Shown here: piece by piece, positions 13,787 through 18,782 of the stretch
How positions within the stretch are numbered: the first letter of the stretch is position 1
Layout: each line of letters opens with the position of its first letter
Assembly: GCF_003018255.1 (NCBI RefSeq)
Contig: NZ_CP027440.1
Reading direction: 5' to 3' (one strand)
Source of the DNA: Escherichia coli
Lineage (GTDB): Bacteria; Pseudomonadota; Gammaproteobacteria; Enterobacterales; Enterobacteriaceae
DNA: 64,000 nucleotides
Program-made: the position numbers and the translations under genes
Notes under the pieces: generated by a model
Database searches by the model: none
What the model saw: the letters and a program-made list of their open reading frames with translations, nothing else
What the model was told of the DNA's origin: nothing

Positions 13787-14587
13787 ATGTACCAGGTTGT
13801 TGCGTCTGATTTAGATGGCACGTTACTTTCTCCCGACCATACGTTATCCCCTTACGCCAAAGAAACTCTGAAGCTGCTCACCGCGCGCGGCATTAACTTT
13901 GTGTTTGCGACCGGTCGCCACCACGTTGATGTAGGGCAAATTCGCGATAATCTGGAGATTAAGTCTTACATGATTACCTCCAATGGCGCGCGTGTTCACG
14001 ATCTGGATGGCAATCTGATTTTTGCTCATAACCTGGATCGCGACATTGCCAGCGATCTGTTTGGCGTGGTCAACGACAACCCGGACATCATTACTAACGT
14101 TTATCGCGACGACGAATGGTTTATGAATCGCCACCGCCCGGAAGAGATGCGCTTTTTTAAAGAAGCAGTGTTCAAATATGCGCTGTATGAGCCAGGATTA
14201 CTGGAGCCGGAAGGCGTCAGCAAAGTGTTCTTCACCTGCGATTCTCATGAGCAACTGCTGCCGCTGGAGCAGGCAATCAACGCTCGTTGGGGCGATCGCG
14301 TCAACGTCAGCTTCTCTACCCTAACTTGTCTGGAAGTGATGGCGGGCGGCGTTTCAAAAGGCCATGCCCTGGAAGCGGTGGCGAAGAAACTGGGCTACAG
14401 TCTGAAAGATTGTATTGCCTTTGGTGACGGGATGAACGACGCCGAAATGCTGTCGATGGCAGGTAAAGGCTGCATTATGGGCAGTGCGCACCAGCGTCTG
14501 AAAGATCTGCATCCGGAGCTGGAAGTGATTGGTACTAATGCCGAAGACGCGGTGCCGCATTATCTGCGTAAACTCTATTTATCGTAA
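13787..14587 (+). CDS. yigL: HAD-superfamily (Cof-type) sugar phosphatase YigL
   Basis: Start set at MYQVVASDLDGTLL (HAD motif I DxDGT) at 13787, just after the pldB stop; ORF track start at 13661 is an upstream in-frame extension overlapping pldB. Confidence 0.9.
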   Translation: MYQVVASDLDGTLLSPDHTLSPYAKETLKLLTARGINFVFATGRHHVDVGQIRDNLEIKSYMITSNGARVHDLDGNLIFAHNLDRDIASDLFGVVNDNPDIITNVYRDDEWFMNRHRPEEMRFFKEAVFKYALYEPGLLEPEGVSKVFFTCDSHEQLLPLEQAINARWGDRVNVSFSTLTCLEVMAGGVSKGHALEAVAKKLGYSLKDCIAFGDGMNDAEMLSMAGKGCIMGSAHQRLKDLHPELEVIGTNAEDAVPHYLRKLYLS

Positions 14588-14662
14588 TCGTTCTTTATTT
14601 GGTCAGTTGTCAACCTGATACTTCGCTACAATGGATACTCGTTAATCAAAGAGTTTTCCATT

Positions 14663-15562
14663 GTGGCGCTACTTATCATCACCACGATTCTGTGGGCCTT
14701 CTCCTTTAGCTTTTATGGCGAGTACCTTGCGGGGCACGTCGATAGCTATTTTGCAGTGCTGGTGCGCGTTGGCCTGGCGGCACTCGTGTTTCTGCCGTTT
14801 CTGCGTACCCGTGGCAATAGCCTGAAAACGGTTGGCCTGTATATGCTGGTGGGCGCGATGCAGCTCGGTGTGATGTATATGCTGAGTTTTCGCGCCTATC
14901 TCTACCTGACGGTCTCCGAACTGTTGCTGTTCACCGTACTGACTCCGCTCTACATCACGCTGATTTATGACATCATGAGTAAGCGCCGTCTGCGCTGGGG
15001 CTATGCTTTTAGCGCCTTGTTGGCGGTGATTGGTGCCGGAATTATTCGCTATGATCAGGTCACCGACCACTTCTGGACTGGCCTGCTGCTGGTGCAACTC
15101 TCCAATATCACTTTTGCCATCGGCATGGTGGGTTACAAACGCCTGATGGAAACTCGTCCGATGCCACAGCATAACGCCTTTGCGTGGTTCTATCTTGGTG
15201 CGTTCCTGGTGGCGGTGATTGCATGGTTTTTGCTGGGAAATGCGCAGAAAATGCCGCAAACCACGCTGCAATGGGGCATTCTGGTGTTTCTTGGCGTGGT
15301 GGCTTCCGGTATTGGCTACTTTATGTGGAACTACGGCGCGACTCAGGTGGACGCCGGAACGCTGGGCATTATGAATAATATGCACGTTCCGGCAGGGCTG
15401 TTGGTTAACCTGGCTATCTGGCACCAACAGCCGCACTGGCCAACGTTTATTACAGGCGCGCTGGTGATCCTGGCCTCACTGTGGGTGCATCGTAAGTGGG
15501 TCGCTCCGCGCTCTTCACAAACGGCAGATGATCGCAGGCGTGATTGCGCGCTGAACGAATAA
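14663..15562 (+). CDS. yigM: Inner membrane DMT-family transporter YigM (biotin transporter BioP)
   Basis: 299 aa polytopic membrane protein, GTG start; 3' end overlaps metR convergently. Confidence 0.85.
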
Positions 15563-16403
15563 ACGCTTCTGTAATCGGCTGACGCTGCTCGCCATCGCGC
15601 ACGGCGGCGTACAGTCGGCTCCACAAGCCTTCGCCCAGGGTTTTGGTGACCACCAGACCCTGGCGTTCAAAACTCTCCACCACCCAATGCGGTAGCGCAG
15701 CGATGCCCATCCGCGCGGCAACCATCTGAATCAACAACAAGGTGTTATCGACGCTTTTCAGTGACGGGCTAACGCCTGCGGGCTGAAGAAAATGCCGCCA
15801 GACATCCAGTCGGCTACGCTGCACCGGATAAATCAACAGCGTTTCGCTGGCGAGGTCTTCCGGCGTGATTCGCGTTTTCGCCGCCAGTGGATGGTCAGGT
15901 GCCAACACCAGACGCACTTCATAATCGAACATCGGCGAATAATGCAGGCCACTGCGCGGCAGAATATCGGAGGTCATCACCAGATCCAGCTCACCCTGCT
16001 GCAACGCGGGCTGCGGGTCAAACGTCACGCCCGATTTAAAATCCATCTCCACCTGCGGCCAGTTCTTATGGAAATTTTCTAACGCGGGCGTCAGCCACTG
16101 AATACAGCTATGGCACTCAATGGCAATGCGCAGGCGCGTCTGCTGCGGTTCATTGCAGGCTTGCAGTGCCTGGCTGATTTGAGGCAGCACCTGATTCGCC
16201 AGTTGCAACAGGATTTCTCCCTGCGGTGTAAACCGAAGCGGCTGGCTTTTACGCACAAATAGCCGGAAGCCAAGGCGTTGTTCCAGATCGCTAAACTGGT
16301 GAGACAGGGCGGATTGCGTTTGATGCAACGTCGCCGCAGCGGCTGCGAGTGAGCCGCAGTTCCGCAACGCTTGTAGCGTTTTCAGGTGTTTTACTTCGAT
16401 CAT
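15450..16403 (-). CDS. metR: LysR-family transcriptional activator MetR
   Basis: 317 aa; N-terminal LysR HTH ([20 protein letters not shown]); divergent from metE. Confidence 0.95.
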
Positions 16404-16520
16404 GAAAGTCCTTCACTTCGGCATGAATAATTTGCGCTTGAGGAATATACAGTAACCGCCAATTATGGATGTGTAAACATCTGGACGGCTAAATACTAAA
16501 AATTCCATAAGGGGCATATA

Positions 16521-18782
16521 ATGACAATTCTTAATCACACCCTCGGTTTCCCTCGCGTTGGCCTGCGTCGCGAGCTGAAAAAAGCGCAAGAGAGTTATTG
16601 GGCGGGGAACTCCACGCGTGAAGAACTGCTGGCTGTTGGGCGTGAATTACGTGCCCGTCACTGGGATCAACAAAAGCAGGCGGGTATCGACCTGCTGCCG
16701 GTGGGCGATTTTGCCTGGTACGATCATGTACTGACCACCAGTCTGCTGCTGGGTAACGTTCCGCCACGTCATCAGAACAAAGATGGTTCGGTAGATATCG
16801 ACACCCTGTTCCGTATTGGTCGTGGACGTGCACCGACTGGCGAACCTGCGGCGGCAGCGGAAATGACCAAATGGTTTAACACCAACTATCACTACATGGT
16901 GCCGGAGTTCGTTAAAGGCCAACAGTTCAAACTGACCTGGACGCAGCTGCTGGAGGAAGTGGACGAGGCGCTGGCGCTGGGCCACAAGGTCAAGCCCGTG
17001 CTGCTGGGGCCGGTTACCTACCTGTGGCTGGGTAAAGTGAAAGGTGAACAGTTTGATCGCCTGAGCCTGCTGAACGACATTCTGCCGGTTTATCAGCAAG
17101 TGTTGGCAGAACTGGCAAAACGCGGCATTGAGTGGGTACAGATCGACGAACCAGCGCTGGTACTGGAACTACCGCAGGCGTGGCTGGACGCATACAAACC
17201 CGCTTACGACGCGCTCCAGGGCCAGGTGAAACTGCTGCTGACTACCTATTTTGAAGGCGTAACGCCAAATCTCGACACGATTACTGCGCTGCCTGTTCAG
17301 GGGCTGCATGTGGACCTTGTACATGGTAAAGATGACGTTGCTGAACTGCACAAGCGTCTGCCTTCTGACTGGCTACTGTCTGCGGGTCTGATCAATGGTC
17401 GTAACGTCTGGCGCGCCGATCTTACCGAGAAATATGCGCAAATTAAGGACATTGTCGGCAAACGCGATTTGTGGGTGGCATCTTCCTGCTCGTTGCTGCA
17501 CAGCCCCATCGACCTGAGCGTGGAAACGCGTCTTGATGCAGAAGTGAAAAGCTGGTTTGCCTTCGCCCTACAAAAATGCCATGAACTGGCACTGCTGCGC
17601 GATGCGCTGAACAGTGGTGATACGGCGGCTCTGGCAGAATGGAGCGCTCCGATTCAGGCGCGTCGTCACTCTACCCGTGTCCATAATCCGGCGGTAGAAA
17701 AGCGTCTTGCAGCCATTACCGCCCAGGACAGTCAGCGTGCGAATGTCTATGAAGTGCGTGCTGAAGCCCAGCGTGCGCGTTTTAAACTGCCCGCGTGGCC
17801 GACTACCACGATTGGTTCCTTCCCGCAAACCACGGAAATTCGTACACTGCGTCTGGATTTCAAAAAGGGTAATCTCGACGCCAACAACTACCGCACGGGC
17901 ATTGCGGAACATATCAAGCAGGCCATTGTCGAGCAGGAACGTTTGGGACTGGATGTGCTGGTACATGGCGAGGCCGAGCGTAATGACATGGTGGAATACT
18001 TTGGCGAGCATCTGGATGGCTTTGTCTTTACGCAAAACGGTTGGGTACAGAGCTACGGTTCCCGCTGCGTGAAGCCACCGATTGTCATTGGTGACGTTAG
18101 CCGCCCGGCACCAATTACCGTGGAGTGGGCGAAATATGCACAATCGCTGACCGACAAACCGGTGAAAGGGATGCTGACGGGGCCGGTAACCATACTCTGC
18201 TGGTCATTCCCGCGTGAAGATGTCAGCCGTGAAACCATCGCCAAACAAATTGCGCTGGCGCTGCGTGATGAAGTGGCGGACCTGGAAGCCGCTGGAATTG
18301 GCATCATCCAGATTGATGAACCGGCACTGCGCGAAGGTTTACCGCTGCGTCGCAGCGACTGGGATGCCTATCTCCAGTGGGGCGTGGAGGCTTTCCGTAT
18401 CAACGCCGCCGTGGCGAAAGATGACACACAAATCCACACTCACATGTGTTACTGCGAGTTCAACGACATCATGGATTCGATTGCGGCGCTGGACGCAGAC
18501 GTCATCACCATCGAAACCTCGCGTTCCGACATGGAGTTGCTGGAGTCGTTTGAAGAGTTTGATTATCCAAATGAAATTGGTCCAGGCGTCTATGACATTC
18601 ACTCGCCAAACGTACCGAGCGTGGAATGGATTGAAGCCCTGCTGAAGAAAGCGGCAAAACGCATTCCGGCAGAGCGTCTGTGGGTAAACCCGGACTGTGG
18701 CCTGAAAACGCGCGGCTGGCCAGAAACCCGCGCGGCACTGGCGAACATGGTGCAGGCGGCGCAGAATTTGCGTCGGGGATGA
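16521..18782 (+). CDS. metE: Cobalamin-independent methionine synthase
   Basis: 753 aa; duplicated UroD-like barrel, C-terminal zinc-binding His/Cys/Glu region (HMCYCEF...); divergent from metR. Confidence 0.97.

Follow-up and report, generated by a model that had tools for sequence, protein, structure and literature searches.

How do the 3′ ends of bioP (yigM), which encodes a biotin transporter, and metR, which encodes the regulator of methionine synthesis, come to lie over one another in Escherichia coli, and does this arrangement serve the expression of either gene? We studied the pair in a window of 64,000 nucleotides, which is the whole stretch of DNA analysed here (RefSeq assembly GCF_003018255.1, contig NZ_CP027440.1). 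A sequence-only reading of this window had described a convergent overlap of 113 bp, which it expected to be present in K-12 and to be conserved rather than novel, and had raised the possibility of antisense interference between the two genes. The features concerned are the following.

14663-15562, plus strand: bioP (yigM) coding sequence, 299 amino acids, GTG start, TAA stop (open reading frame list and RefSeq)
15450-16403, minus strand: metR coding sequence, 317 amino acids, ATG start, TAA stop (open reading frame list and RefSeq)
15450-15562, both strands: convergent overlap of 113 bp (from the open reading frame coordinates)

The overlap was borne out exactly, by the open reading frame list as well as by the sequence. 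Within it, first codon positions of the two genes lie opposite each other, bioP second positions lie opposite metR third positions and bioP third positions lie opposite metR second positions. In a domain search, BioP was assigned to the EamA/DMT family of transporters (Pfam EamA to residue 275, TIGR00950 to residue 273), and its function as a biotin transporter has been reported (Côté et al. 2016, PMC5120140; PMC10038027). MetR is a LysR-type regulator of methionine synthesis, for which the equivalog NF011950 spans residues 1-317 and Pfam gave HTH_1 and, extending to residue 288, LysR_substrate. The structure 5fo5 corresponds to residues 1-92 of E. coli MetR, and 4ab5, whose chain was deposited as a LysR-family regulator, is the closest solved homologue of the MetR effector domain and aligned to residues 87-296. 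The pair thus has the properties of a genuine convergent overlap, namely two real functional genes, opposite-strand 3′ ends that are set by stop codons and occurrence in several species. Antisense to nearly all of bioP, there is also an open reading frame of 255 amino acids on the minus strand (14669-15436), which is probably a chance open frame.

As had been anticipated, the same overlap is annotated in RefSeq for K-12 MG1655 (NZ_CP010440 and NC_000913.3), with bioP at 4011076-4011975 and metR at 4011863-4012816 in NC_000913.3. The K-12 pair (b3827/b3828) is identical to that of the window in its genes, the 113-bp overlap, the frames and the stop positions, and the proteins are 99.7% identical. 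It differs by point changes only, such as S298 in K-12 BioP versus N298 in the window, which reflects a CGT/CGC difference that is synonymous in MetR R283. For strain DETEC-S792, which is 100% identical to the window, RefSeq gives the same two coding sequences and the 113-bp overlap. The overlap of yigM and metR has in addition been noted in print (Côté et al. 2016, mBio, PMC5120140). It is therefore already known, and what the present analysis adds is confined to a codon-level partition of the constraint, the finding that a rare CGA codon is frozen and a connection to Rho data from the literature.

Over positions 14600-16500, no more than 8 of 5425 E. coli genomes were at least 99% identical to the window, and all others were 95-99% identical. 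This indicates that, for the bioP/metR locus at least, the window stems from a rather divergent lineage of E. coli. The metR-metE intergenic region measures 117 bp in the window (16404-16520) versus 236 bp in K-12, where the metE leader contains an extra dispersed repeat of about 119-128 bp (locus L086, 3908-4035) that the window does not have. We take the hairpin core of this repeat to be ERIC/IRU-like. It was present at 95% identity or more in about 2100 of 5426 E. coli genomes, with copies of 60-90% identity elsewhere (median of three places per genome), and is therefore an insertion polymorphism in a regulated leader.

The bioP/metR locus was found in 5422 of 5426 complete E. coli genomes. 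A scan with one genome per species returned 80 Enterobacteriaceae loci with BioP identities of 81-99%, from Escherichia, Salmonella, Citrobacter, Klebsiella, Enterobacter, Kosakonia, Raoultella, Siccibacter, Trabulsiella and other genera; together with two E. coli records, these made up the 82 loci that were compared. In all 82, the starts of bioP and metR lay exactly 1741 nt apart, without indels, and the codon at the bioP stop position was TAA in every one of them. The lengths of the overlap were distributed as follows.

72 loci: MetR of 317 amino acids, overlap of 113 bp
7 loci: MetR of 318 amino acids, overlap of 116 bp
2 loci: MetR of 312 amino acids, overlap of 98 bp
1 locus (L030): early bioP stop with a BioP of 284 amino acids, overlap of 68 bp

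Conservation, as supposed by the sequence-only reading, thus extends to an unchanged spacing in 80 species. The yigM frame ends at the TAA in 81 of the 82 loci and stops earlier in L030, so a shortened or frameshifted yigM is confined to a single locus and is not the state of most genomes. Retention of the arrangement without gaps in 80 species is far beyond chance. Since any indel would shift the reading frame of both genes, coding constraint fully explains this conservation.

When variation was scored per site in the 82 loci, the variable codon position switched sharply at 15499/15500. The overlap could be divided into three parts.

15450-15499: BioP-dominated part, BioP residues 263-279 opposite MetR residues 302-317 and the metR stop; variation at bioP third positions
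about 15500-15515: doubly constrained junction, BioP V280-A281-P282-R/H283-S284 opposite MetR R/K297-S298-A299-E300-R301; near-invariant at all three codon positions in the 82 loci
15516-15562: MetR-dominated part, MetR residues 281-296 opposite the BioP tail (residues 285-299) and the bioP TAA; variation at metR third (bioP second) positions

BioP residues 263-279 form the end of the last membrane helix (...SLWVHRxW279). Opposite the MetR tail, BioP synonymous diversity was not reduced (1.15 observed versus 1.04 ± 0.15 expected, P=0.76). The amino-acid entropy of this MetR tail (302-317) was 1.19 compared to 0.20 for MetR 1-280, a six-fold difference, and the tail seems essentially unconstrained. 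As to the MetR-dominated part, few stretches of MetR are as conserved as residues 281-296. Here a residue of the BioP tail changes at each MetR synonymous change, and BioP 285-295 varies freely via its second codon positions. The entropy of the BioP tail was 0.70 versus 0.32 for the BioP core, and past residue 284 BioP would be at most weakly constrained.

At the junction almost every base is invariant, which requires selection in both frames. MetR R301 was CGA in 81 of 82 loci, a codon that accounts for 6.8% of the Arg codons elsewhere in metR. Further MetR codons were frozen as well, with GAG for E300 in 77 of 82 loci, GCG for A299 in all 82 and CGG for R297 in 59 of the 64 loci with an Arg codon. 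MetR is thus forced onto unusual codons at the junction. Opposite BioP 280-299, MetR synonymous diversity was reduced to 0.617, compared to 0.978 ± 0.084 (P=1e-4) for codons that were matched by amino acid within the gene and species. The reduction was concentrated in about five junction codons and about three last BioP codons, and a test for dual coding over the whole overlap found it only at about 15500-15515 and at these last BioP codons. At the latter, MetR F281 (TTT in 82 of 82) and I282 (ATT in 81 of 82) keep BioP E299 and the TAA invariant, and Ala296 of BioP is likewise retained through frozen MetR synonymous sites. The BioP tail is on this account not fully neutral, and it may have some function or contain a signal at the nucleotide level.

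Two synonymous sites of bioP were also unusually invariant, at H276 (15488-15490; CAT in 81 of 82 loci) and V268 (15464-15466; GTG in 79 of 82). They face second positions of MetR D305 and S313, respectively, in the otherwise drifting tail, and weak selection on either MetR residue is possible. A GTT codon for V268 would create a metR stop, as is the case in both variants with a 312-residue MetR.

We then asked whether the tails are needed. Distant BioP homologues (36-49% identity; clusters with members from Vibrio, Microbulbifer, Shewanellaceae and Helicobacter among others) end 3-20 residues past the last helix, and their tails are non-conserved and often basic. Natural truncations of BioP occur directly after the WVAP(R/H)S motif, at 284 amino acids (42 member sequences), which is also the length in L030, and at 285 amino acids (66 member sequences), in a cluster of Salmonella serovar Gaminara (proteins P0076 and P0077; equivalent to 15512-15517). 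The early stop in L030 is a TGA that arose from a change at a MetR third codon position. An AlphaFold model of BioP (mean pLDDT 92.6) extended the last helix to residue 297 at a moderate pLDDT of about 73; a model of MetR had a mean pLDDT of 41.6 on a shallow alignment of 23 sequences and was excluded from the evidence. Both tails are presumably translated as annotated and would have little function.

On the opposite strand, the bioP TAA falls within MetR Phe281-Ile282 (TTT-ATT) and the metR stop (TAA or TGA) within BioP Ile263-Thr264, so that each stop codon is a by-product of conserved codons of the partner. Stop codons occur in this antisense phase at a frequency of 0.048 per codon, as counted in 44 long open reading frames of the window. 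At this frequency an open run of at least 20 codons has a probability of about 0.37-0.45, and one of at least 16 codons of about 0.45-0.48. Given abutting cores, the length of the overlap is not beyond chance and the tail lengths are unremarkable.

By geometry, a full-length mRNA of either gene is antisense to its partner over at least 113 nt. Since there is no intergenic space, there is no intrinsic terminator and each transcript must enter the other gene. A pattern scan found no intrinsic-terminator-like site in 15300-15800 or in the overlap apart from a weak one inside metR (15849-15837). Folding of either strand gave z-scores of -1.2 and -2.1, with no hairpins followed by U-tracts and no excess structure, so neither between nor within the two 3′ ends was a bidirectional intrinsic terminator seen. 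The covariance models of Rfam 15 gave 0 matches at E<=1 within 14300-16800. Published data and base composition pointed to two regions on the plus strand.

15291, plus strand: equivalent of the peak of a Rho termination region, K-12 position 4011704 mapped by coordinates, with a resolution of ±800 nt
15600-15750, plus strand: candidate Rho loading region in the bioP-sense RNA past the stop, C-rich and G-poor, GC skew -0.19 to -0.30

The Rho termination region at K-12 4011704 was reported on the plus strand and classed as internal to yigM, with a Rho score of 5.07 and a p value of 1.3e-12 (Adams et al. 2021, eLife, PMC7815308, Supplementary file 2). In windows of 800 nt, the reads upstream and downstream were 98 and 21 without bicyclomycin and 300 and 326 with it (Adams et al. 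2021, PMC7815308), so that about five times as much bioP-sense transcription continues into antisense metR when the inhibitor is present. At the low resolution of these K-12 data, Rho appears to curtail bioP-sense transcription before it proceeds far into antisense metR, which limits an interference rather than demonstrating one. No Term-seq 3′ end or antisense RNA is given for yigM/bioP or metR in the tables of the same study (PMC7815308). The RNA in the metR sense past the metR stop (15200-15400) is likewise C-rich and G-poor, and the stretches on both sides would be compatible with Rho loading; the position at which the metR transcript ends is one that we infer. The Rho peak lies 271 nt before the bioP stop, and if this position, drawn from 800-nt windows, is accurate, many bioP transcripts may be terminated prematurely.

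The data are best explained by a genuine, old and passively maintained tail-to-tail overlap of two real genes, which we regard as highly probable. The conserved cores adjoin without a spacer, with BioP reaching to about residue 284 (last membrane helix and WVAP(R/H)S) and MetR to about residue 301. Past the junction each frame runs on over the antisense of the partner core until it meets a stop encoded by the partner. The 113 bp are in this view made up of 16 drifting residues at the end of MetR, 15 residues at the end of BioP that are weakly constrained, and some 15 nt under dual selection. With coding constraint on both cores, any indel would be lethal to both genes and the arrangement would be frozen, while bioP-sense transcription would be ended by Rho. 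The junction may have originated by loss of a spacer. The species scan gave only Enterobacteriaceae, at 81% identity or more, and among them no outgroup with a spacer was found. A search of representatives returned homologues from Vibrio, Microbulbifer, Shewanellaceae and Helicobacter at 51% identity or less, and in the three contigs examined, including those of Vibrio and Microbulbifer, they did not adjoin metR.

The search of representatives also returned three degraded or frameshifted loci. In L083 (556-1455), residues of about 205-245 of bioP did not align, as if the gene were doubly frameshifted, and a 98-bp overlap with a metR of 312 amino acids is still present. L087 contains decaying, fragmented genes for a rhtB-like protein, bioP, metR and metE, and L088 likewise fragments of yigL, bioP and metE. 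L087 and L088 may come from host-restricted relatives.

Other explanations of the overlap were considered. It could be an artefact of annotation or sequencing in which one frame has been extended by error, as is the case for most prokaryotic overlaps of more than 60 bp (Pallejà et al. 2008, PMC2478687). However, the 3′ ends depend on stop codons and not on the choice of a start, independently assembled genomes of 80 species and 5422 genomes of E. coli have the same ends, convergent orientation is the only one that allows real long overlaps (Pallejà et al. 2008, PMC2478687), and BioP function is lost when metR is deleted (Côté et al. 2016, PMC5120140). An artefact is therefore scarcely conceivable, and we rejected it on the genome counts, the species and the deletion phenotype. 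A more substantial alternative is that both C-terminal tails are functional and that the overlap is truly dual-coding over its whole length. The reduced variability of MetR synonymous sites opposite the BioP tail (P=1e-4) would be expected in this case, as would the conservation of BioP V280-S284, A296 and E299 at the cost of unusual MetR codons, and the BioP tail is predicted to be helical. The signal is nevertheless limited to about five junction codons and about three terminal codons, with BioP 285-295 free to vary. In addition, truncated forms of BioP (284 and 285 amino acids) persist in natural lineages, the MetR tail has six times the entropy of its core, imposes no net synonymous constraint on BioP and varies in length, and distant homologues have no conserved tails. 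Dual coding of the entire overlap is for these reasons unlikely.

The overlap might instead serve regulation. If the two convergent transcription units interfere, or if their complementary 3′ ends of at least 113 nt pair, polymerase collision or cleavage by RNase III would make bioP and metR mutually antagonistic in the manner of an excludon and would couple biotin uptake to methionine or homocysteine status. Biotin synthesis consumes S-adenosylmethionine, which offers a conceivable physiological link. Complementary 3′ ends are forced by the geometry, the arrangement is kept throughout the family without indels, and the five-fold rise of bioP-sense read-through upon bicyclomycin treatment means that antisense metR RNA could be formed when Rho is limiting. 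On the other hand, the frameshift that an indel would cause in both genes is alone sufficient to account for the conservation, and neither excess RNA structure (z = -1.2 and -2.1) nor an Rfam match was seen. In untreated cells Rho would remove most of the read-through and the counts are low (98 to 21), the tables of Adams et al. (2021, PMC7815308) hold no 3′ end or antisense RNA for either gene, and our literature search found no report of reciprocal bioP/metR expression. We consider a regulatory role of this kind improbable. In a more specific form, the spacer-less junction, the frozen BioP C-terminus and the TAA would be kept by convergent transcription, involving Rho and possibly RNase III, which links biotin uptake to the methionine/SAM regulon, so that, in certain conditions, less MetR is made when bioP transcription reads through, or the other way round; this is more improbable still. 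The antisense interference between bioP and metR raised at the outset is possible but unsupported.

The overlap has its main practical weight as a caveat for the design of knockouts, because neither gene can be deleted or interrupted within its last 113 bp without damage to its partner. The Keio deletions of Baba and colleagues (2006) reportedly keep only the last 21 nt of a gene. By this design, the Keio ΔmetR allele removes BioP from codon 270 on and with it a portion of the conserved last helix, in keeping with the constraint map, and ΔyigM would be expected to delete the end of MetR, starting at about residue 288. A metR deletion mutant was defective in biotin uptake and phenocopied the loss of BioP (Côté et al. 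2016, PMC5120140). It was synthetic-lethal with bioA and sensitive to a BioA inhibitor in rich medium, which was attributed to the disruption of yigM (Côté et al. 2016, PMC5120140). Nothing was found in our literature search on Keio ΔyigM and methionine prototrophy. The phenotypes of ΔmetR or ΔyigM mutants may thus be confounded. Beyond this, the locus is a small, clean example of how a long convergent overlap persists, with mostly dispensable tails and about five dual-coding codons, one of them rare (CGA). As such it is ordinary and opens no new question.

Conserved long convergent overlaps of genes in prokaryotes were reportedly described by Rogozin and colleagues in 2002. No overlap of more than 60 bp can be real unless it is convergent, and most of the real ones are conserved only in very close species (Pallejà, Harrington and Bork 2008, PMC2478687). 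The bioP/metR pair resembles these in its length of more than 60 bp, its ends defined by stop codons and the extension of 3′ ends into the neighbour. It is unlike most of them in being fixed in at least 80 species of a family, and unlike them also in a constraint that could here be partitioned codon by codon.

The pair also bears a likeness to an excludon in its oppositely oriented neighbours and, by geometry, in its overlapping transcripts. Excludons were described in Listeria, and their defining feature is measurable repression of the neighbouring gene by a long antisense transcript. For bioP/metR, in contrast, neither a repressing antisense transcript nor reciprocal expression is documented, and Rho appears to curtail the read-through. 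Suppression of antisense and read-through transcription by Rho in E. coli is said to have been shown by Peters and colleagues in 2012. The bioP 3′ region is similar to such cases in its bicyclomycin-sensitive drop in coverage, seen in 800-nt windows on the plus strand (Adams et al. 2021, PMC7815308), and in the C-rich, G-poor RNA that follows the bioP stop.
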